From an uncultured Thermoprotei archaeon (GTDB lineage Archaea > Thermoproteota > Thermoprotei > QMSL01 > B3-G16), in NCBI GenBank assembly GCA_964517845.1, contig CAZFCQ010000003.1:35978-99977 (forward strand): 64,000 nucleotides of DNA, read 5' to 3'. The notes beneath the pieces are model-generated. The model saw only the letters and a list, made by a program, of their open reading frames with translations. It had not been told where the DNA came from and did no database searches. A program made the translations under genes and the position numbers. Positions 5,060 to 58,165 of the stretch are shown here, piece by piece; positions within the stretch are counted from its first letter, which is position 1, and every line of letters starts with the position of its first letter.

Positions 5060-5651
5060 ATGCGTACGCGTAAGAAGCCGTCATATAAGATTGAAAATGT
5101 AGTAGCATCTGTAAATTTGCATCAGAAGATCGATCTAAATGCTATAGCTGAAAACGTTCCTAATGCTGAATATAACCCAGAACAGCTAGGCCAATAAGGC
5201 CTAGCTCTGAGAGTTCCCAGGTTTAGTATTCAGACTATCGAAACCTAAAACAGCTACTTTGATATTTAGCTCTGGGAAGATGGTTTGTACAGGAGCAAAG
5301 TCTGAAAAGCAAGTATATAAGACTGTTAAGTCGATAATCCGTACTTTGAAAAAGTATGGTATAGTTATCGAGAAAGAGCCTGAGATAACAATTCAAAATG
5401 TTGTAGCTTCAGGTAATCTTCACGCTGAAGTAAATCTGGAAAAAGTAGCTTATCTCCTTGAAAATAGCATGTACGAACCAGAACAATTCCCTGGTCTCAT
5501 ATATCGTATGGATGACCCTAGAGTAGTTCTTCTGATCTTTAGTAGCGGTAAATTAGTATGTACTGGTGCTAAGCGGGAAGAAGAAGTTAAAAGAGCCGTA
5601 GGTAAGATGTATGAGAAGCTAAGGAACCTGGGTGTCCTATATGAAGAATAA
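5060..5651 (+). CDS. tbp: TATA-box binding protein (TBP), interrupted after codon 42 by a 28-nt stop-containing hairpin insert. Exon 1 is 5060..5185 and the remainder is 5214..5651. The joined product is 187 aa
   Basis: Exon 1 translates as [42 protein letters not shown]. After the insert the sequence continues [31 protein letters not shown]...(second repeat)...[36 protein letters not shown], giving both TBP direct repeats. Removing exactly 28 nt restores the frame and the canonical EQ|FPGL junction. Confidence 0.8.
5186..5213 (+). other. 28-nt insert inside the TBP gene. The stem is AGCTAGGCC / GGCCTAGCT (5184..5192 / 5198..5206), the loop is AATAA (5193..5197), with in-frame TAA at 5195..5197, and the 3' tail is CTCTGAGAG
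   Basis: This is a perfect 9-bp inverted repeat read directly from the sequence. The length (28) is not a multiple of 3. The boundaries can slide by 1-2 nt because of AG microhomology. Confidence 0.7.
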
Positions 5652-6761: not shown

Positions 6762-7334
6762 ATGATAGAAATTCGATGGCATGGTCGAGGAGGACAAGGA
6801 GTAGTCACTGTTAGCCGCCTCCTTGCTATGGCTGCCCTCTATGAAGGTAAGTATGTTCAAGCAATTCCTCAATTTGGCCCCGAAACGCCCTGAAAAAGGG
6901 CGCGGGAGAGAAGTGGTGCGCCAGTTACAGGGTTTACTAGAATCAGCACTGAACCTATAGAAGTACATACTGGTGTCTACAACCCTGACATAGTTGTTGT
7001 AATAGACCCCTTTGTAATTAAGACAGTAAAAGTAACTGAAGGCCTTAAGGAGACAGGCATCTTAATAGCAAATTCCTCTAAAACTCCCTCTGAAGTAAAA
7101 AGTGAGCTAAACATAGCTAATCCAGTTTACGTAGTGGATGCAACTAAAATAGCCCTAGACATATTCAATAGACCGTTCTTCAATACTCCTATGCTTGGCG
7201 CCCTTGTAAAGGTTACAAACGTAGTTTCCTTAAATTCTGTAGAAAAAGCTATCAAAGAAAGATTTAGAGCTGAAATTGCTGAGAAAAATATACAAGCTGT
7301 AAGACGAGCTTATGAAGAGGTGAAGAGTGAATGA
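6762..7334 (+). CDS. porG: Pyruvate/2-oxoacid:ferredoxin oxidoreductase gamma subunit, with an in-frame TGA (6891..6893) inside a 24-nt hairpin insert
   Basis: The N-terminus [41 protein letters not shown] is followed by [TP*KRARE], then [34 protein letters not shown]...[15 protein letters not shown]. Without the 8 extra codons the protein aligns colinearly with PorG (canonical FG.ERRGAPV). An SD-like GAGGTGA lies upstream. Confidence 0.8.
6885..6908 (+). other. 24-nt insert inside porG. The stem is CGCCC / GGGCG (6886..6890 / 6898..6902), the loop is TGAAAAA and begins with the in-frame TGA, and the 3' tail is CGGGAG
   Basis: This is a perfect 5-bp GC stem read from the sequence. The boundaries can slide over 4 positions (GAA/GAG microhomology). 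A flanking CCCG/CGGG pairing is also possible. Confidence 0.65.
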
Positions 7335-7627
7335 GTAAAAAGCCTGGTTGGAGAGAGATCCCTATCGGTGGCTTAATACTCGAGCCAGGATCAACAGTTA
7401 AAGTACGTACCGGTGACTGGAGAACTTTCCGTCCGATAATAGATCATGACAAATGTATAAAATGCCTCATGTGCTGGATATACTGTCCTGACGCTTCAAT
7501 CATCATAGTAGGTTCAGGAGATACCGTTGAGCGTGTTGAGATAGACTACGAACATTGTAAGGGTTGTGGTATTTGTGAAAGAGTATGTCCAAGAAAGGCA
7601 ATTAGTATGGTACCTGAAGGTGGGTGA
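7331..7627 (+). CDS. porD: Pyruvate:ferredoxin oxidoreductase delta subunit (2x[4Fe-4S] ferredoxin)
   Basis: Two CxxCxxCxxxCP motifs are present (CIKCLMCWIYCP, CKGCGICERVCP). Confidence 0.9.
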   Translation: MSKKPGWREIPIGGLILEPGSTVKVRTGDWRTFRPIIDHDKCIKCLMCWIYCPDASIIIVGSGDTVERVEIDYEHCKGCGICERVCPRKAISMVPEGG

Positions 7628-7633
7628 ATTATT

Positions 7634-8842
7634 ATGGTAGTTAGTAGTGAGAAGATTAAGAAAGTTCGTATATTAGGACTTACAGGAGATGAAGCAGTAG
7701 CTCAGGCAGTAAAACAGTGCGATGTTGATCTCATATCTGCATATCCAATAACTCCACAAACCATTATTGTTGAACGTTTAAGTGAATTTGTGGCTAATGG
7801 TGAGGTGGACGCAGAGTTCATCGCTGTAGAATCCGAACATAGTGCTTTATCAGTTGTAACAGCTGCTGCTCTAACAGGAGCGAGAGTATTTACTGCAACA
7901 AGTAGTCAAGGCTTAGCACTTATGTTTGAAATATTATATATAACTTCTGCATTACGTGCACCAGTAGTAATGGCTATCGTTAACCGTGCACTTTCCGCTC
8001 CAATAAATATTCACTGTGATCATTCAGATACCATGGGTGCCAGAGATTCTGGATGGATACAATTTTATGCCGAAAATGTACAAGAAGCGTATGATTTAGT
8101 GTTTCAAGCTTATAAGGTAGCTGAAAATAAGAGCGTCCTACTTCCTACGATGGTGTGTTTAGATGGCTTTACCCTCTCTCACACTTTAGAACGAGTAGAA
8201 CTAATAGATGATACTGACGCCTTAAAATATCTGCCCTCTAAGCCTACATATCCATTCCCGATAAATCCTGAAAAGCCAATAACGTACGGTCCACTAGCAC
8301 TTCCTGACTTCTACTTCGAATTTAAAGTACAGCAAGCAGAGGCTATGAAACAAGCCCTTAAAGTAATACCAGAGGCTATGGAAGAATTTGGAAGAATAAG
8401 CGGAAGAAAGTATGGCTTCTTTGAGGCCTACGGCTTAGAAGATGCTGATGTTGCTGTGATCTCTTTAGGTAGCACTTCAGGCACTATGCGTTATGTCGCT
8501 AAGGAGTTACGTAAAGAAGGATACAAAGTAGGTACTGTTAAACTCACTGTATACCGGCCCTTCCCTCAGGATGAATTAGCTAAAGCATTAGAGAATATTA
8601 AAGTTATAGTTGCTATGGATAGAACTCTAAGCTTTGGTGCTGTAGGAGGCCCATTGTTTGAGGATCTGCGTTCCCTATTCTATGATAGTGAACAGCGACC
8701 ATTAATAGCAGACGTAGTCTATGGTCTTGGTGGTAGAGATTTAACCCCAGATGATGCTCGTGCTATATTTAAGTATGGACTTGAGATATCTAAAACTGGT
8801 CATGTTCCTGAAAAGGTTAAATTCGTAGGGGTGAGAGAATGA
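7634..8842 (+). CDS. porA: Pyruvate/2-oxoacid:ferredoxin oxidoreductase alpha subunit
   Basis: The 402-aa product has the POR domain I/II. It sits in the operon position after delta and overlaps the beta gene by 4 nt. Confidence 0.9.
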   Translation: MVVSSEKIKKVRILGLTGDEAVAQAVKQCDVDLISAYPITPQTIIVERLSEFVANGEVDAEFIAVESEHSALSVVTAAALTGARVFTATSSQGLALMFEILYITSALRAPVVMAIVNRALSAPINIHCDHSDTMGARDSGWIQFYAENVQEAYDLVFQAYKVAENKSVLLPTMVCLDGFTLSHTLERVELIDDTDALKYLPSKPTYPFPINPEKPITYGPLALPDFYFEFKVQQAEAMKQALKVIPEAMEEFGRISGRKYGFFEAYGLEDADVAVISLGSTSGTMRYVAKELRKEGYKVGTVKLTVYRPFPQDELAKALENIKVIVAMDRTLSFGAVGGPLFEDLRSLFYDSEQRPLIADVVYGLGGRDLTPDDARAIFKYGLEISKTGHVPEKVKFVGVRE

Positions 8843-9786
8843 GTCTAACTTTAAAATCATTACCTAGGGAAGAATTATTCGCCCCTGGACATAGTGCTTG
8901 CCAAGGCTGTGGAGCATCAATGGCATTACGTATCGCCTTAAAGGCTTTAAGACCTGATGAGACAGCAGTACTTGTATTCGCTACAGGATGCATGGAAGTT
9001 ATTTCAACACTATATCCCTATACTGCATGGAGAGTACCTTTCGTTCACTTAGCTTTTGAAAATGCTGCCGCAGCTGCAAGTGGGATAGAATCAGCATTAA
9101 GAGCTCTTGAAAGAAAAGGCCTCTTTAAGAGTAAGAAGAAAGTTCATGTAATTGCCATTGGAGGAGACGGAGGAACCTTCGATATCGGATTACAAGCCCT
9201 CTCAGGTGCATTAGAGAGAGGGCATAAAATGCTGTATATATGCTATGATAATGAAGCATACATGAACACTGGGATTCAAAGATCTGGAGCTACACCCTTT
9301 AGAGCTTGGACCACAACTACACCAGTTGGAAAGGAGATACCCGGTAAACCTCAATTTAAGAAGAATCTTGTAGGCATAGCTGCAGCTCACGAAATACCTT
9401 ACGCTGCAACAGCTTCACCAGCATACTGGGCTGATCTAATATCGAAGGTTCGAAAAGCTCTTGACGCTAATGGTCCCTCTTTAATACACGTGTTAGCACC
9501 GTGCCCCCTCGGTTGGCGCTTTAATTCAGCAATTACAGTGGATATCGCTAGATTAGCTGTAGAAACTAGATTCTTCCCATTATATGAAGTAATAAATGGC
9601 AGAAAATATAGGATAACCATTAAAGTACCCAAACCTAAACCCGTTACAGAGTATATCAAACTACAAGGAAGATACGCGCACCTACTTAGGCCAGAGTATA
9701 GTGATTTACTTAAGATGCTACAAGAAGCTGTAGATTCGTTCTACACATGGCTCGAACACATGGAAAAAGCCACAGCTAATTTATAA
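8839..9786 (+). CDS. porB: Pyruvate/2-oxoacid:ferredoxin oxidoreductase beta subunit (TPP-binding)
   Basis: The protein carries CQGCGASMAL and the TPP motif IGGDGG. Confidence 0.9.
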   Translation: MSLTLKSLPREELFAPGHSACQGCGASMALRIALKALRPDETAVLVFATGCMEVISTLYPYTAWRVPFVHLAFENAAAAASGIESALRALERKGLFKSKKKVHVIAIGGDGGTFDIGLQALSGALERGHKMLYICYDNEAYMNTGIQRSGATPFRAWTTTTPVGKEIPGKPQFKKNLVGIAAAHEIPYAATASPAYWADLISKVRKALDANGPSLIHVLAPCPLGWRFNSAITVDIARLAVETRFFPLYEVINGRKYRITIKVPKPKPVTEYIKLQGRYAHLLRPEYSDLLKMLQEAVDSFYTWLEHMEKATANL

Positions 9787-13323: not shown

Positions 13324-16227
13324 ATGTCCAAGCTACAGGGTAGTGTAGAGGAAGTCTCTAAAAAGACTAATGTTTTCAAGTTATTAGCTGACTCCATAAG
13401 AGATGCATTACATGAAAGAGGATTCTTAGAAGCCACAGAGCCGCAGAAAAAAGCTATACCCTTAATATTACAAGGCTACAATGTACTACTTATCGCTCCT
13501 ACTGGCACAGGTAAGACAGAGGCAGCAATTTTACCTATTTTTAGTATGTTTCTTTCCCTTAAAAATGATAAGAAGCTAGAACCAGGAATTTATATACTTT
13601 ATATAACACCCTTACGCGCGCTTAATAGAGACCTCTTAGACAGGCTTACATGGTGGGGAGAAAAGTTAGGTATAAGTGTTGCTGTTCGTCACGGAGATAC
13701 TGAACAGTCAGAAAGAACTAAGCAAGCAAAGAAACCTCCCGAATTATTAATAACAACTCCTGAAACATTACAAGCTTTACTTTCAGGTAGACGAATGCGT
13801 GCTCATCTAAGTAAAGTACACTGGGTAATAGTGGATGAGGTACATGAATTAGCTGAAGACAAACGTGGCTCACAACTTACTTTAGCTCTTGAGCGCTTAC
13901 GCCTTGTATGCAACAGAGACTTTCAGATAGTAGGGCTTTCAGCTACAATTGGCTCCCCTCAAGAAGTGGCCCACTTCTTAGTAGGTGCAAATAGAGATGT
14001 TAGAATAGTTAAGGTCTCTGTAACGCGTCTTATGAAATTAAAGGTAGTATTTCCTAAACCTATGCAAGAAGATTATGAGCTCAGCTTAAAGCTTTATACG
14101 CATCCAGAAGTTGCAGCTAGACTTAGATATATTAAATCCCTTATTGAGAAGCATAGGTCTGCTTTACTTTTTGTTAATACACGCGCAATAGCAGAGGTGC
14201 TAGCTTCTAGGTTCCATGTATGGGATGTTAACTTTCCTATTAGTGTTCATCATGGTTCCTTAGCTAAGCCTTCAAGAATTGCAGCAGAGAAAGGTCTTAA
14301 AAGCGGAGAGTTAAAAGCGTTAGTTTCTACGTCCTCCCTAGAGCTTGGAATAGATATAGGCCATGTTGATCTAGTCATACAGTATATGTCCCCTAGGCAA
14401 GTGACCCGTTTAGTACAAAGAGTAGGGCGCTCAGGGCATAGAATAGGGGGTATCGCTAAGGGAATCATAATTACTGCCGATCCTGATGATACTCTAGAGG
14501 CTATGGTTATTTGTCGTAAAGCATTAAATGAAGAACTAGAACCTATTTCAATACCTAAAAAACCACTCGATGTACTTAATCATCAAATAGTAGCTCTCTT
14601 TATGTTAAAAAGTAGATGGACGATTGATGAAATACTCTCACTATATGGACGTGCGTATCCTTATAAGGATCTAACAAAAGATGATCTTCTCTTTGTATTG
14701 CGCTATATGCACAGCCGATATCCCCGACTTGCATGGCTTTCTGAAGAAGATGGAGTCGTGCTCAAACCTAGACGTAGTAGGGAAATGTACCAATATTTCT
14801 TTGAGGAACTCTCTATGATACCTGATGAAAGGCACTACCTAGTAATAAACCATGAAGATAACACCCCGATAGGCTTATTAGACGAGGCTTTTCTAGCTGA
14901 GTATGGAGAACCTGGGATAAAGTTCATATTTAGAGGAAGCGTATGGGTAATTAAGGAAATCACACATGATCGAGTTTTAGTAACCCCATCTACAGATCCT
15001 ACAGGTGCTATACCATCATGGGTAGGTGAGGAGATTCCTGTTCCCTTTGAGGTTGCTCATGAAGTAGGTATATTGAAACGACATGTCGTAGAGGAACTAG
15101 AGAAAGGTAAAAGCTTAAAGGAGATAGCCCAGGAATTGGTATCTAAATATCCTATAGACCAAGAATCTGCTTATAGAGCTCTTGCTGAGATAGAGGCCCA
15201 ATATAACAAGGGACTACCTGTGCCTTCAGATAAAGTTGTTCTCGTAGAGACGTGGGGAAATATTGCTATAATTCATACGCATCTAGGAACTTTGGCTAAT
15301 AGAGCCCTAGCCAGAATGATGGGAGAGATTTTAGCAGAGATGCTTGGATCGAGTATAGGAGTACAACAAGATGCTTACAGAATAGTGCTACAACTACCTA
15401 AGAGACTCAAACCAAGTTCTTTTAGAAATGTGTTCAGGAAGCTTTATATGAGCGATTTAGACAAACTTATGAGACGCGTAACTTTACGCTCCGGCCTCTT
15501 CAAACGACGCTTAATACATGTAGCTAGACGCTTTGGCGCTCTTAAAAAATCGATAGACTTTACTGAAATTAGCTTAAGACGCCTTGTCGAAATGTTTGAT
15601 GGTACTCCTATATATGAAGAAGCATACTCAGAATTCCTTCAAAAGGACATAGACATAGACTCTGTTAAACAGTTCCTACATAGAATTGAAGAAGGTAGGA
15701 TAAGGCTAGACTATATAGACTCTAAAGATCCCTCTCCCTTGAGTAGATTAGCTTTAGAGCGTATTGCACGAAGAACTGAATTGATACCCCCTAAGAAGTT
15801 GCATCGCATAATAATTGAAGCAGCTCGTGCACGTCTACTTAATGAAGCACAAATTTTTATATGTACAGAGAATTGGGACTGGCTGGATAATATCAGAATA
15901 AAAGACTTACCAGAAAAGGTTGCTTGTCCTAAATGTGGATCAAAAAGAATAGGTCTAGTTAAGGCTGATGAGAAAACAGCTATAAAATTATTAACCCTTA
16001 AAGGAAAGGTAAGAAGTAAGCGAGATCATAGAATAATTCAGGAAGTAAAGGAAAGTGCGCAACTTATAGAGAGGTATGGTAAAATAGCAGCATTAGTTCT
16101 TTCAGGGCGTGGTCTATCTGTCAGGGATGCTAAGCATATCTTAGAACGAGAATCAAAGCTCTCAGAGAAGCTTATAGAATTAATAATTCAAGCGGAGAAA
16201 GAGGCATTAAAAAGACGTTTTCTCTAA
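13324..16227 (+). CDS. lhr: Lhr-like large ATP-dependent helicase (DEAD/DEAH box, superfamily 2)
   Basis: The 967-aa product has Walker A (APTGTGKT), DEVH and helicase C motifs, plus a long Lhr-type C-terminal extension with a Zn ribbon (CPKCGS). Confidence 0.8.
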   Translation: MSKLQGSVEEVSKKTNVFKLLADSIRDALHERGFLEATEPQKKAIPLILQGYNVLLIAPTGTGKTEAAILPIFSMFLSLKNDKKLEPGIYILYITPLRALNRDLLDRLTWWGEKLGISVAVRHGDTEQSERTKQAKKPPELLITTPETLQALLSGRRMRAHLSKVHWVIVDEVHELAEDKRGSQLTLALERLRLVCNRDFQIVGLSATIGSPQEVAHFLVGANRDVRIVKVSVTRLMKLKVVFPKPMQEDYELSLKLYTHPEVAARLRYIKSLIEKHRSALLFVNTRAIAEVLASRFHVWDVNFPISVHHGSLAKPSRIAAEKGLKSGELKALVSTSSLELGIDIGHVDLVIQYMSPRQVTRLVQRVGRSGHRIGGIAKGIIITADPDDTLEAMVICRKALNEELEPISIPKKPLDVLNHQIVALFMLKSRWTIDEILSLYGRAYPYKDLTKDDLLFVLRYMHSRYPRLAWLSEEDGVVLKPRRSREMYQYFFEELSMIPDERHYLVINHEDNTPIGLLDEAFLAEYGEPGIKFIFRGSVWVIKEITHDRVLVTPSTDPTGAIPSWVGEEIPVPFEVAHEVGILKRHVVEELEKGKSLKEIAQELVSKYPIDQESAYRALAEIEAQYNKGLPVPSDKVVLVETWGNIAIIHTHLGTLANRALARMMGEILAEMLGSSIGVQQDAYRIVLQLPKRLKPSSFRNVFRKLYMSDLDKLMRRVTLRSGLFKRRLIHVARRFGALKKSIDFTEISLRRLVEMFDGTPIYEEAYSEFLQKDIDIDSVKQFLHRIEEGRIRLDYIDSKDPSPLSRLALERIARRTELIPPKKLHRIIIEAARARLLNEAQIFICTENWDWLDNIRIKDLPEKVACPKCGSKRIGLVKADEKTAIKLLTLKGKVRSKRDHRIIQEVKESAQLIERYGKIAALVLSGRGLSVRDAKHILERESKLSEKLIELIIQAEKEALKRRFL

Positions 16228-20038: not shown

Positions 20039-20257
20039 GATTAAACTACTTTATTTTTATAATAACCAAATATTATAAAGAGAATTCATAAGCCAAATAC
20101 ATCCTGCATTATTATAATCACTTTACCATCTCTCGCTATACTCTTTAACTTTAACATCCATAGTGCTCCGTCGATTTCTTATAATCTTATCCTACGTTAA
20201 ATTTAAAAGGGTTTGAAGTCTATTTAAACCAACAGAGCAATGTTATATCACCTTGAA

Positions 20258-20312
20258 TTATGATGAATAGGGACTATCTGAGCTAATGATGATCATGCGG
20301 ATGTGCTGACCT
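20258..20312 (+). ncRNA. Candidate C/D box sRNA (2'-O-methylation guide)
   Basis: C box AUGAUGA at 20260..20266. D' box CUGA at 20278..20281. C' box AUGAUGA at 20286..20292. D box CUGA at 20306..20309. Guide spacers are 11 nt and 13 nt. It lies in a convergent intergenic region. Confidence 0.55.
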
Positions 20313-20341
20313 TTGTCATAACCTAATGAAATTTTCAGCAT

Positions 20342-21547: not shown

Positions 21548-21853
21548 TAGACCACCTTACCTTATGGGAATATTACTATTACCATCGCACATTGCTACGA
21601 TGATATACATAACTCACTATAGTGTTAGCATTTACTCTCATCATTATGTATGCTGAGAGGTCACTTCATGTGGTATTTTAAGTTAAAGACTTTATGAGTA
21701 TTTTGTCTGACATGGTGTATTATCCGGACACTATATATTGTCTCTAATGACACTTTTCACGTAATGGGAAAAGAAGCTATATGAAAGACGTAATACTACA
21801 GTACTAATCTTAGAAATACCAACCTCTATCTGTCCTGTAGACTCTAAAATTAG

Positions 21854-22057
21854 TTGGGTGTTGTAATGCATAGAAAAAGTCACTTAAGACTAGTAAGTAT
21901 TCACCTCCCTGAAAGCTATGTTTATGGATTAGACGAACTCGTAGACAAAGGGTTATATCCCTCAAGAAGTGAAGCTATACGCGTAGCAGTGAGAGACCTA
22001 TTAATGCGTGAACTTTGGAAAAGAAGAAGGCATAGCTCAACAAGACTTGTTGGTTGA
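21854..22057 (+). CDS. Ribbon-helix-helix (CopG/Arc-like) DNA-binding protein
   Basis: ...LRLVSIHLPESYVYGLDELVDKGLYPSRSEAIRVAVRDLLMRE has the typical RHH beta-alpha-alpha arrangement. Confidence 0.55.
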   Translation: MGVVMHRKSHLRLVSIHLPESYVYGLDELVDKGLYPSRSEAIRVAVRDLLMRELWKRRRHSSTRLVG

Positions 22058-22136
22058 TGACGTTATCTTAGGTGCAAGGCATTAACGCAAATATATAGAA
22101 AATTTTTAGAGACACTACTAATTCTATACTACTCAG

Positions 22137-22433
22137 GTGGCAGTACTGACCTCATCAGATGAAATAAAGCAAAAGATATTTGAGAAATTAAAAGAGATAG
22201 TAGATCCTGAAATAGGGTTAAACATAGTAGAAGCTGGCTTCGTACGTAATGTGAAAATAGAAGATGGAAATGTCTTAATAGAAATAATGCTTACATCGCC
22301 TTTCTGTCCTTTAGCTTTCTTCTTGATAAATGCTATTAAAGAGAAAGCATTACTTATAGAAGGTGTAAAATCGGTAGATGTCAAAGTAATAGGCTTCGGA
22401 ATTCCTCCAGAACTAGAAGAACGCCTTAAGTAA
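22137..22433 (+). CDS. DUF59/MIP18-family Fe-S cluster assembly protein (SufT-like)
   Basis: The protein carries ...VDPEIGLNIVEAGFV...TSPFCPLA..., the conserved DUF59 core with a Cys. Confidence 0.7.
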   Translation: MAVLTSSDEIKQKIFEKLKEIVDPEIGLNIVEAGFVRNVKIEDGNVLIEIMLTSPFCPLAFFLINAIKEKALLIEGVKSVDVKVIGFGIPPELEERLK

Positions 22434-22459
22434 AAATAAAAACAGCCACTACTTTCCAA

Positions 22460-23314
22460 CTATGTACTATCGCCAAGTCGCCTTTCTATATTTTTCACAG
22501 CTTCAGTTATCTTTCTTAGGTATTCGCTCTCTTCAGTTCTTTTTATATGCTCTAAGATGATATTATAGACCTTCTCAGGATTTGGTATCCCATAGAGAAC
22601 GTATTGTGCTCTAGCTCTAGTGACTTTAATACTTTTTCCCCCTCCTACAGAAGCTTCAAGTCCACTCTTCTGTATTCCAGCAGAAGTGAAGGCAAAGTTG
22701 CTTCCCATTCCAAGCTCTGAAGGGGTTATTGGTATCACAGTACCATAATTGAATATTTTCCCTATGATTCCTTTCTTTAGTATAACGTCCACTATGCGAC
22801 TATAGAATATGCTACGCTCTTCTGTAGTGAGAAAAGCTTTAGTAGTAATGATCCTATAGTTTGTTAGGTAGTACTCATACCCTCGTCTTTGTATATCAGA
22901 GACTATCAAACCTACTATGCTTATAATGCATAATAATGATAGAATCCCTTTTACATCAGGATTGATATAATACGCGTAGCTTGTCACAATAAGACAGATT
23001 ATCATATAAATTATAGGTACTTTCCAGGTGATTTTAAAGACTCCCATAATTACTCCTGGGATCATCATTAAAAGCCAAAGTAATATTAAATAACTCATCC
23101 ATCTGCCTATGTATAATAGACTTGAAATACCTAGAAATATTGCAAGCTTTATCAATATAGGTCTTACATAGTCTAAAACCAAGTAGGAGAGTAGTCCAGC
23201 AATAGTGGGATACATGGCAATGGCATAGTTAGTGAAGAATGCTAATGCTCTAGGTTTACATTTAAGTATTATGCTTTCATCGTTTAATAAGTGAACTTTC
23301 ATATTACTTACCAT
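22460..23314 (-). CDS. Membrane protein with a bacterial PH (YdbT-like) domain
   Basis: Multiple TM helices are present, with a central ...YYLTNYRIITTKAFLTTEERSIFYSRI bPH-like segment. Confidence 0.45.
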   Translation of the reverse strand: MVSNMKVHLLNDESIILKCKPRALAFFTNYAIAMYPTIAGLLSYLVLDYVRPILIKLAIFLGISSLLYIGRWMSYLILLWLLMMIPGVIMGVFKITWKVPIIYMIICLIVTSYAYYINPDVKGILSLLCIISIVGLIVSDIQRRGYEYYLTNYRIITTKAFLTTEERSIFYSRIVDVILKKGIIGKIFNYGTVIPITPSELGMGSNFAFTSAGIQKSGLEASVGGGKSIKVTRARAQYVLYGIPNPEKVYNIILEHIKRTEESEYLRKITEAVKNIERRLGDST

Positions 23315-40229: not shown

Positions 40230-40787
40230 TTATGCTTTAAACCACTTGAAGACATAATAGCGTATAGCACGTGTTTGTGGATGTACAACTGCTATTACAA
40301 ACCTCTTTCTAACACTATGAGAAAGTCTTCCTGCTCTTATTATTTCGATAGGATCCATTTTTGCCTCATATGGCATTACATGCACTAAAAAAGGTGCGTG
40401 GTCTATACCTGGCCCGTATCTATATACAGCAAATGTACTTCCAAACTTTAATCCTGGTCTAACTACATATCCTTTGCTTCTTAAGTCTTTATAAACCTCA
40501 TAAACATCATCAAACATATAGTATATCTTCCTTGCATATTCTCTCACATCCTCAGGCTTAAGGCTTCTCCCTTGAGAATCGAAAACCTCAATTCTCCCTT
40601 TTTCGAGAAGATAGAGAGCTTCAAGTAATGAGAGCTCGACAGGTCTCTCTATGTCTAGTTCCTTAGGTTTGCTTATGCCTACTAATTTCCCATAAAATCC
40701 CTCTTTATAAAGCCTAGGAGCTTCTCTCTTATCCCAAGCTATAATTCGAGAGCCTATGAGCACAGCTTTTATCTTATCTTCGCTCAT
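40230..40787 (-). CDS. endA: tRNA-splicing endonuclease, catalytic subunit (EndA)
   Basis: The 185-aa product has the C-terminal catalytic domain ...YRYGPGIDHAPFLVHV...RLSHSVRKRFVIAVV (Tyr/His/Lys triad context). Confidence 0.8.
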   Translation of the reverse strand: MSEDKIKAVLIGSRIIAWDKREAPRLYKEGFYGKLVGISKPKELDIERPVELSLLEALYLLEKGRIEVFDSQGRSLKPEDVREYARKIYYMFDDVYEVYKDLRSKGYVVRPGLKFGSTFAVYRYGPGIDHAPFLVHVMPYEAKMDPIEIIRAGRLSHSVRKRFVIAVVHPQTRAIRYYVFKWFKA

Positions 40788-50723: not shown

Positions 50724-50799
50724 TGGTAGCCCGGCGGGGATTCGAACCCCGGTCGGCGGGGCCAGAGCCCGCCATGCTTGGCCGCTACACCACCGGGCT
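50724..50799 (-). tRNA. tRNA-Gln (anticodon CUG), 76 nt including a genomically encoded 3' CCA
   Basis: The cloverleaf was derived by hand. The acceptor is AGCCCGG/CCGGGCU. The T-arm is CGGGG-UUCGAAU-CCCCG. The anticodon stem is GCGGG/CCCGC with loop CUCUGGC (U33, CUG, G37). Confidence 0.85.
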
Positions 50800-57216: not shown

Positions 57217-57852
57217 CTACTTACAGTACCTCTTAGTTATGTAATCCTCTATAGCCTTGAATATCGTTTCCATGGCATCGTATCTTAATAGCTCTCTACT
57301 GCCCTTAGCCACATAGTAGATACCAGGCTTCTCTATGAAGCCCATTAGAAGAAGTTCTCCTTCTAAAAATTCTATCAAAAAGTGTTTCCCTCCTGCGGAT
57401 ACCTTAAGTACCTCATCAATTAATTCCTTTATAAGAGCAGCTTCCGCTTCTCCCTTCTCTTTATTCCCTTCTGTAGTTTCAATAAGTAGACCAGAAGCAT
57501 CTGCTATTGTTATACCCTTAAGTTCGTATCCTTTAGCTAGTTCCTCTATTGAATTAGCTTGTATTAATGTTATCTTTCTTTCCTTTTCTACTTCGTGTCG
57601 TAATGTACCTTGTGTAAAGCTCCCTAAAACCATTCTAGCTAATAATCTTATAGAGCTTGAATACTCCATTATGAATTTCCCGAGTACCCTATTCGTTTCT
57701 CTTAGGTCTTTAATAAGCTTCCTACGTAAATACGTACTGACAAGTAATAACGTTAAGGCGTATATTATGATCATAAGCACGTCTTTAGGGGTAAAAGAAA
57801 GCAGATCTTTTATTATAAAATCCCATAAGTTACTCAGAAACTTCACCTCCAA
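57217..57852 (-). CDS. Membrane-anchored Roadblock/LC7 (MglB-like) domain protein
   Basis: An N-terminal TM helix is followed by a C-terminal roadblock-like ...ITIADASGLLIETTEG... Confidence 0.5.
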   Translation of the reverse strand: MEVKFLSNLWDFIIKDLLSFTPKDVLMIIIYALTLLLVSTYLRRKLIKDLRETNRVLGKFIMEYSSSIRLLARMVLGSFTQGTLRHEVEKERKITLIQANSIEELAKGYELKGITIADASGLLIETTEGNKEKGEAEAALIKELIDEVLKVSAGGKHFLIEFLEGELLLMGFIEKPGIYYVAKGSRELLRYDAMETIFKAIEDYITKRYCK

Positions 57853-58165
57853 ATATCTTCCTTAGTATAACATATATCTTACCTAGGTTAGGTTTAACTC
57901 TGGTCTTGCTTACAATATACTCTTTTCCTTTTTTAACAATTATGATATGACTCTCATCCTCTAACATGATATCTACATGCTTTATGTTATGAGGAAAAAT
58001 CTCGCTTTTTATGATCTTTATTATTTCATTTAGAGTTTCCTCGCTTATGTCTCTAGGGGAAAATTTACCAAGTACATCACCATTACTACTTAAGACTATT
58101 ATCCACTCTATGTCCTTTCTACTCTCTACTAATACTCTTTTAATTAGAGTCTCCCATGATTTCAC
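57830..58165 (-). CDS. Roadblock/LC7 domain protein
   Basis: The 111-aa product has ...IIVLSSNGDVLGKF... with an alpha-beta-alpha sandwich-like pattern. Confidence 0.5.
   Translation of the reverse strand: MKSWETLIKRVLVESRKDIEWIIVLSSNGDVLGKFSPRDISEETLNEIIKIIKSEIFPHNIKHVDIMLEDESHIIIVKKGKEYIVSKTRVKPNLGKIYVILRKIFGGEVSE

Follow-up and report, generated by a model that had tools for sequence, protein, structure and literature searches.

The pre-mRNA of cbf5 in Desulfurococcales and Sulfolobales reportedly carries an intron, as described by Watanabe in 2002 and Yoshinari in 2006, and non-canonical introns of crenarchaeal tRNAs are said to have been described by Marck and Grosjean in 2003 and Sugahara in 2008. 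The cbf5 introns are 16-44 bp long, have a relaxed motif, are in-frame in some cases, interrupt a catalytic codon and are tied to a hetero-oligomeric endonuclease, and cbf5 is the only confirmed case of an intron in an archaeal coding sequence (Yokobori 2009, PMC2738675). Papers of 2020 (PMC7714728), 2023 and 2025 list only cbf5 and one intron in a 5' untranslated region (5' UTR), the review of 2023 expecting that more will probably be found. The stretch of DNA considered here, 64,000 nt from a contig (CAZFCQ010000003.1) of an uncultured Thermoprotei archaeon and termed the window in the following, contains a candidate of this kind in porG, the gene encoding the gamma subunit of pyruvate:ferredoxin oxidoreductase (POR or PFOR), as well as a second one in the gene of the TATA-binding protein (TBP). 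In our reading, which has a probability of about 0.85, the pre-mRNA of porG contains a mini-intron of 24 nt that belongs to the archaeal bulge-helix-bulge (BHB) type and to the cbf5 kind. The element combines a BHB structure with covariation between lineages, restoration of the frame upon removal, purifying selection on the exons and a suitable endonuclease gene in the same window.

The porG gene (6762..7334, + strand) runs from an ATG at 6762 to a stop codon at 7332-7334 and is interrupted by an in-frame TGA at 6891-6893, after which the same frame resumes until 7334. Its surplus consists of 24 nt (ACGCCCTGAAAAAGGGCGCGGGAG, 6885..6908) inside the conserved motif FGPE/RxGAP, and taking out this predicted intron (ACGCCCUGAAAAAGGGCGCGGGAG, + strand) gives back FGPE/RSGAP. 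The flanking parts are exon 1 (6762..6884, +), with 41 codons ending in QFGPE, and exon 2 (6909..7334, +), with 141 codons and the stop. The 182-residue PorG obtained without the 24 nt aligns end to end (1-182) with the gamma subunit of a solved PFOR (9BT4_E), the junction being free of gaps, and the unspliced frame ends after 43 codons. A sequence-only reading of the window had described the insert with its in-frame TGA between FGPE and RSGAP, the colinearity of the remaining protein with canonical gamma subunits and the position of porG at the head of the por operon, all of which are borne out. We also agree with its argument that exon 1, carrying the segment GRGGQG, is needed, so that a restart downstream cannot rescue the gene. 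It offered no mechanism, and the junction-spanning peptide that it put forward for detection is the predicted spliced product. The remainder of the operon (7331..9786, +), comprising porD (7331-7627), porA (7634-8842) and porB (8839-9786) in the order porG-porD-porA-porB, is uninterrupted. At a G+C content of ~37% in the window, the insert is conspicuously GC-rich by contrast, and its hairpin sequence is found once in the window versus 0.05 occurrences expected. A mobile mini-element, such as a cluster of GC hairpins resembling miniature inverted-repeat transposable elements, was considered and rejected, one copy being present in 64 kb when up to 3 mismatches are allowed.

The minimum free energy (MFE) fold of 6850-6945 pairs the end of exon 1, CCCG (6879..6882, the exon bases of the Pro-Glu codons), with the 3' end of the insert, CGGG (6903..6906, intron bases), the two strands forming a 4-bp central helix. 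Between them lie the bulge of the 5' splice site, AAA (6883..6885), which comprises 3 nt in the MFE and RNAalifold folds and has its predicted cut at 6884/6885, and an outer helix of 6 bp, CGCCCU/AGGGCG, closed by the loop GAAAA (6886..6902), with the TGA straddling the boundary of stem and loop. The bulge of the 3' splice site, AGA (6907..6909, predicted cut at 6908/6909), comes after the central helix, in the position that symmetry requires, all of these parts being on the + strand. The combination of the 4-bp helix CCCG/CGGG, the bulge AAA and the hairpin CGCCCU/AGGGCG appears in the MFE, centroid and RNAalifold folds, and the 43-nt core has a folding energy of -17.6 kcal/mol (z = -2.81) that 2 of 200 shuffled sequences attain. 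The hairpin noticed in the sequence-only reading is real, but it had been drawn as CGCCC-GGGCG with the TGA opening the loop; the stem has 6 bp, the T of the TGA is its last base and GA opens the loop. Nor is the hairpin the whole feature, as had been supposed, being only the outer helix of a larger BHB motif. The splicing endonuclease EndA cuts between nucleotides 2 and 3 of each 3-nt bulge, the bond 14/15 of the bulge 13-14-15 in a crystal structure of 2025 (PMC12397907). When this rule is applied to porG without reference to the protein, exactly 24 nt are taken out (6885..6908) and FGPE-RSGAP is regained. The predicted junction of the spliced mRNA, ...GGCCCCGAA followed directly by AGAAGUGG..., joins ...CCC GAA to AGA AGU..., which encode FGPE-RSGAP.

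Interrupted orthologues of porG were reached via truncated gene calls, which led to syntenic contigs of five further lineages; scans of contigs in genome and metagenome collections with the spliced PorG gave no interrupted orthologue among the matches listed. The best full-length homologues are only ~65% identical and are uninterrupted. The insert stands at the identical codon in all six lineages. It has 24 nt with stem CGCCCU/AGGGCG and loop GAAAA in the window and the close strain L088, 22 nt with the same stem and the loop ACU in L001-5, 23 nt with stem CGCCUU/AAGGCG in L173-5, 20 nt with stem CGCCU/AGGCG and loop UAA in L169-172, 21 nt with the central helix CCUG/CAGG in L176, and 18 nt with stem CGCC/GGCG and loop UUA in L177-9. 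The helices are conserved and the loop differs in length and sequence. The cleavage rule gives back the frame and the motif FGPE-R(S/R/M)GAP in 6/6 lineages. In an alignment of the six elements, 59/59 cells are paired, versus 28-53% in controls with a slid partner strand, and RNAalifold recovers the core unaided. Two pairs are compensatory, one of them joining exon and intron: in L176, CCCG/CGGG has become CCUG/CAGG, such that a synonymous change of the Pro codon in the exon is matched in the intron. The other is a change from C-G to U-A at pair 5 of the outer stem in two lineages.

These comparisons bear directly on several other explanations of the element. An artefact of sequencing or assembly would be conceivable in a metagenome-assembled contig, short GC hairpins being able to give local errors, and the sequence-only reading had named it as one outcome. 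An independent assembly in the European Nucleotide Archive (ENA), made from a different sample, is however identical to the window over 8,209 nt including the insert, and the element is present in L088 and in contigs of the five lineages that come from several samples and different assemblers, which reduces the probability of an artefact to a negligible level. Stop readthrough or recoding of the UGA, which would lengthen PorG by eight residues (TP-x-KRARE), would suit the window, where the insert is in frame at 24 nt and a hairpin lies at the UGA. It is no general solution because the insert length is not a multiple of 3 in 3/6 porG lineages; inserts of 22, 23 and 20 nt in porG and of 28, 26 and 31 nt in TBP shift the frame. 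Moreover, the lineages differ in their stop (TGA, TAG or TAA), and the motif interrupted by the insert is unbroken in the solved structure and in 159/160 other porG loci fetched, 0/160 of which have an insert at this site. The sequence-only reading, which had also proposed the comparison of orthologous porG genes, was right not to expect recoding, and readthrough of this kind is scarcely credible.

The third possibility, likewise named in the sequence-only reading, is that a small palindromic insertion has turned porG into a nonsense pseudogene, its role being taken over by another oxidoreductase. The frame as written does end prematurely, and gene callers split or truncate porG in every assembly. 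Both exons are nonetheless under strong purifying selection: between the window and L001, 20/41 codons of exon 1 differ, 18 by synonymous and 2 by non-synonymous changes, and exon 2 is likewise under purifying selection, with synonymous sites heavily diverged between lineages. The retention of the insert at a single position throughout six lineages, its helices being conserved while its loop varies, the intact porD, porA and porB genes downstream, and an insert of the same kind in TBP, an essential gene of single-copy type, all speak against loss of function as well, and a dead porG is therefore very unlikely.

The TBP gene (5060..5651), 1.7 kb upstream of porG, holds 28 extra nt between YNPEQ and FPGL. 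Exon 1 (5060..5183, +) ends in AEYNPE and the C of the Gln codon, the predicted intron (5184..5211, +) comprises 28 nt whose removal restores the protein, and exon 2 (5212..5651, +) holds the remainder. The motif is of textbook form and consists of a central helix of CAGA (5178-81) and UCUG (5206-09), the bulges ACA (5182-84) and AGA (5210-12), and an outer helix of 8 bp (GCUAGGCC/GGCCUAGC) with the loop AAUAA; the fold of this intron has z = -5.07. Taking out 28 nt by the cleavage rule yields a complete two-repeat TBP of 187 residues, with the predicted mRNA junction ...AACCCAGAAC followed by AGUUCCCAGG..., and keeping them leads to a frameshift and a TAA. In the nearest intact TBPs (72-78% identity), YNPEQFPGL is continuous; the top match, P0220, was rejected as an unrelated three-repeat protein. 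The gene is called in two pieces in the orthologous contigs as well, where the introns have 26, 28, 31 and 27 nt. Covariation across lineages is stronger than in porG, with 72/72 cells paired in six introns, 6/12 pairs compensatory and slid controls at 14-42%; the score is matched by 0/500 shuffles, and RNAalifold agrees. The introns of porG and TBP are alike in structure and not in sequence, and MAFFT does not bring the two families into one structural register.

An additional TBP intron of 27 nt, absent from the window, lies at the homologous site of repeat 2 (YEPEQ/FPGLIY) in L169 (2606-2632, equal to 8606-8632 in L180), which suggests that an intron was gained at a similar target, or that the repeats underwent conversion. 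The L169 copy has a 4-bp outer helix and is the only one among the 12 porG and TBP introns with the strict form of the motif (hBHBh'). In both genes of the window, a Pro-Glu pair (CCN GAR) stands shortly before the 5' splice site (6879-6884 in porG, 5177-5183 in TBP) and exon 2 starts with AG, a shared context that could reflect target preference or coincidence.

Programmed translational bypassing, in which the ribosome would leave the mRNA at the Glu codon, skip the hairpin and land 18-24 nt downstream, has to be weighed against this pair of genes. Bypass gaps such as those of phage T4 gene 60 and the byps of Magnusiomyces mitochondria share with porG a short, GC-rich, stop-bearing hairpin that interrupts an essential reading frame in AT-rich DNA, with the stop near its start, and in the window Glu is encoded both by GAA, the codon ahead of the gap, and by GAG, its final triplet. 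The known cases need matched take-off and landing codons and are without an exon-intron helix and paired 3-nt bulges, unlike porG, where the take-off triplet equals the landing triplet in 0/6 lineages and 3/6 landing triplets (GAU, GAU, GCU) encode another amino acid. The stop is not adjacent to the take-off codon, the junction of TBP falls within a codon, and bypassing leaves unexplained the strictly conserved 4-bp helix between exon and intron, the two 3-nt bulges and the compensatory changes between exon and intron. Bypassing is hence as improbable as a pseudogene.

All 12 introns of porG and TBP, which are 18-31 nt long, restore an uninterrupted conserved protein under the cleavage rule (12/12). 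The core of helix, bulge and hairpin is the MFE structure in 10/12 intron cores folded as single sequences, with z between -1.6 and -5.1. Each of the 12 also has a stop codon in the frame of exon 1, in or beside the hairpin loop (6891-6893 in porG and 5195-5197 in TBP of the window), compared with 4 and 1 for the two alternative frames, even though the loops vary in length and sequence; after shuffling, such a stop is present in 2.6/12 introns on average, and 0/2000 runs reach 12. Across two orthologous sets this excess is suggestive only, and it is plausible that the in-frame stop serves as a safeguard, keeping unspliced mRNA from being translated under coupled transcription and translation.

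A splicing endonuclease suited to such motifs is encoded in the window. EndA, the catalytic (alpha) subunit of the tRNA-splicing endonuclease (40230..40787, - strand, 185 residues), contains PF02778 and PF01974 and passes the cut-off of TIGR00324 (NCBI endA). Its best matches among solved structures are the alpha subunits of crenarchaeal (alpha-beta)2 enzymes from A. pernix (3P1Z_B, 2.6e-52), P. aerophilum (2ZYZ_B, 1e-42) and S. tokodaii (2CV8, 1.4e-40), the alpha4 enzyme of M. jannaschii matching at only 1.2e-23. The catalytic His, replaced by Ala in the mutant 3AJV, is intact, and the Crenarchaea-specific loop reads ISKPK, aligned with VEKPR of A. pernix such that K44 and R46 correspond to K and K. 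This loop permits cutting of relaxed motifs at non-standard positions (PMC3241643; PMC12397907). On these alignments, the EndA of the window is of the broad-specificity crenarchaeal type.

In the mechanism that we propose, CCCG of exon 1 would pair with CGGG of the insert in the porG transcript to form the 4-bp central helix, the GC hairpin would be the outer helix, and the two bulges of 3 nt would be AAA and AGA. EndA, with its catalytic subunit encoded in the window, would then cut after nucleotide 2 of each bulge, and an RNA ligase, possibly RtcB, which joins the exons in other archaea, would connect ...CCCGAA to AGAAGU..., giving an mRNA for the normal PorG of 182 residues. Translation of the unspliced porG transcript would end at the loop stop after 43 residues. 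The same EndA is proposed to cut the introns of porG and TBP alike.

The structural evidence, as well as the in-frame stop in 12/12 introns, would also fit with EndA cutting the motif mainly as a switch, either by cleavage without efficient ligation, which would destroy the mRNA, or by conditional splicing that sets the amounts of PorG and TBP. Decay initiated by the tRNA endonuclease in yeast is a precedent for cleavage that destroys an mRNA, and of the two gene products concerned here, one is a general transcription factor and the other an enzyme of central metabolism. The intron of HVO_1309 in Haloferax volcanii, too, appears to affect expression (PMC7714728). On the other hand, precise ligation is the only route to a functional protein, and both genes are under purifying selection, therefore productive splicing must be at least common. 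A function chiefly as a switch is thus improbable, though less so than a pseudogene or bypassing.

Several observations weigh against the interpretation as mini-introns. In the 96-nt context, the stability of the porG fold is ordinary (z = -1.19), and the exon-exon helix that should close the 3' bulge has only 1-3 bp or is missing, amounting to the single pair C6878-G6910 or to 3 bp across a 3x3 internal loop. The 3' splice site of porG, with its weak closing helix, is thus only in a relaxed form of the BHB motif, of the kind accepted for cbf5 and for crenarchaeal tRNA introns. Two introns of L177, 2/12 of the single-sequence folds, have a competing MFE structure, and since orthologous introns share ancestry, the lineage counts do not represent independent events. 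BHB geometry alone is a weak predictor: a loose scan of the window gives 352 matches versus ~300 in shuffled sequences, and adding the criterion that open frames be joined gives 151 versus 127-161 for random deletions, both of which are uninformative. A strict descriptor, which was derived from the 12 introns and is thus circular for them, has a background of 3 matches in 986 kb of unrelated loci (0.19 per 64 kb) and of ~0.4 per shuffled window, and it produced one false positive. This sole new match, an AT-rich hairpin at the 3' end of the Lhr helicase gene (16176-16195, +), was rejected as chance because its excision destroys the C-terminus ...EKEALKRRFL, which is conserved unspliced in other lineages. 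Neither the beta subunit of EndA nor the RtcB ligase is found among the annotated open reading frames (ORFs) of the 64-kb window, and splicing is predicted here from genome comparison.

Across the ~20 kb that are syntenic, interruptions are confined to TBP and porG. Rfam searches of the window at gathering thresholds give only a tRNA-Gln, the gene for tRNA-Gln(CUG) at 50724-50799 (-) being the only tRNA gene in 64 kb and having no intron. Two intervals, 20039-20341 (303 nt) and 21548-22132 (585 nt), contain no ORF of at least 70 codons, which is unusual in so dense a window, and have no Rfam match at these thresholds. Two pairs of ORFs on the - strand adjoin each other, 22133-22459 and 22460-23314 with one in-frame stop between them, and 57217-57852 and 57830-58165 with an overlap of 23 nt. 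Neither a GC or convincing BHB hairpin nor a bridging family match is found at 22460 or 57830-57852, a weak bPH_2 match of ORF 22460-23314 being the sole family match in either pair, and these may be split genes of another kind or separate genes. Among the por genes of related contigs, porB is called with 449 residues in L001 (4937-6286) versus 315 in the otherwise near-identical L002 and L004, which may reflect a frameshift or a difference in assembly at the 3' end.

The host belongs to a deep clade of Thermoproteota (TACK). Its nearest named TBP relatives span Geothermarchaeota, Methanomethylicia, Nezhaarchaeales, Thermofilaceae and "Thermoprotei", and no close relative is among the matches listed from the genome collection. 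The window also encodes Arcadin-1 (1884-2243), and a crenactin gene is found in the sister lineage L180 (1-878). Arcadin-1 and crenactin are markers of a cytoskeleton otherwise typical of Thermoproteales and Korarchaeota, and useful for placing the clade.

Compared with the systems described so far, the introns of porG and TBP would join those of cbf5 as further archaeal pre-mRNA introns of one kind, which is known but very sparsely populated. As in cbf5, an essential conserved site is hit, some of the introns are in-frame, there is a link to an (alpha-beta)2 endonuclease, and the genes are misannotated as split or frameshifted. In contrast to cbf5, the hosts are porG and TBP in another thermoproteotal lineage, a stretch of 2 kb holds two to three introns, those of TBP occupy homologous sites of both repeats in one lineage, and all 12 carry an in-frame stop. 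While the splicing of cbf5 has been shown experimentally, for porG and TBP we infer cleavage and ligation in vivo, and the identity of the enzymes, from sequence. In the literature searched, introns of this type are not reported for TBP or POR genes, an absence that is no proof of novelty.

The non-canonical tRNA introns of Thermoproteales and other Crenarchaeota share with these elements the 4-bp helix, the 3-nt bulges, the outer hairpin, the class of enzyme and the tolerance of relaxed motifs by way of the Crenarchaea-specific loop (Hirata 2011, PMC3241643), and the crenarchaeal size range of 11-175 nt takes in the introns of porG and TBP. They differ in that the host RNA of porG is an mRNA without a tRNA body and the Pro-Glu codons restrict the bases that the exon contributes to the central helix. 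The intron of HVO_1309 is likewise a BHB intron in an mRNA that is cut by the splicing endonuclease, but it has 46 nt, lies in the 5' UTR and is processed by an alpha2-type enzyme in a euryarchaeon (Schwarz 2020, PMC7714728). A more distant parallel is provided by HAC1 and XBP1, processed by Ire1 together with RtcB or Trl1, where a short mRNA intron is also removed without a spliceosome by an endonuclease that reads stem-loops, the ends are joined by a tRNA ligase, and no functional protein arises from the unspliced mRNA; the nuclease Ire1 is unrelated, however, the motif is another one, and the process is stress-regulated and eukaryotic.

The further TBP intron in repeat 2, at the position homologous to the first, together with the CCN-GAR context and the AG of exon 2 at both sites, leads to a broader and tentative idea, which we regard as doubtful: that mRNA mini-introns are a regular feature of genes in this clade and able to spread to similar sites, with TBP and POR dependent on EndA and the ligase and with the in-frame stop selected as a fail-safe. 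Clade-wide mini-introns would, if real, be an archaeal counterpart of controlled splicing of the HAC1/XBP1 type. For the annotation of archaeal metagenome-assembled genomes, the consequence is that automatic procedures break real genes, both TBP and porG being mis-called in every assembly examined. The repeat-2 intron of TBP offers a natural case in which to study intron gain and a possible role in quality control or regulation. For more than 20 years cbf5 has been the sole archaeal coding sequence known to be spliced, and TBP and porG would add two central host genes, each with strong support from comparison and with clear, testable junctions; if the interpretation is true, the tRNA-splicing machinery of archaea may act on mRNA more widely than thought.

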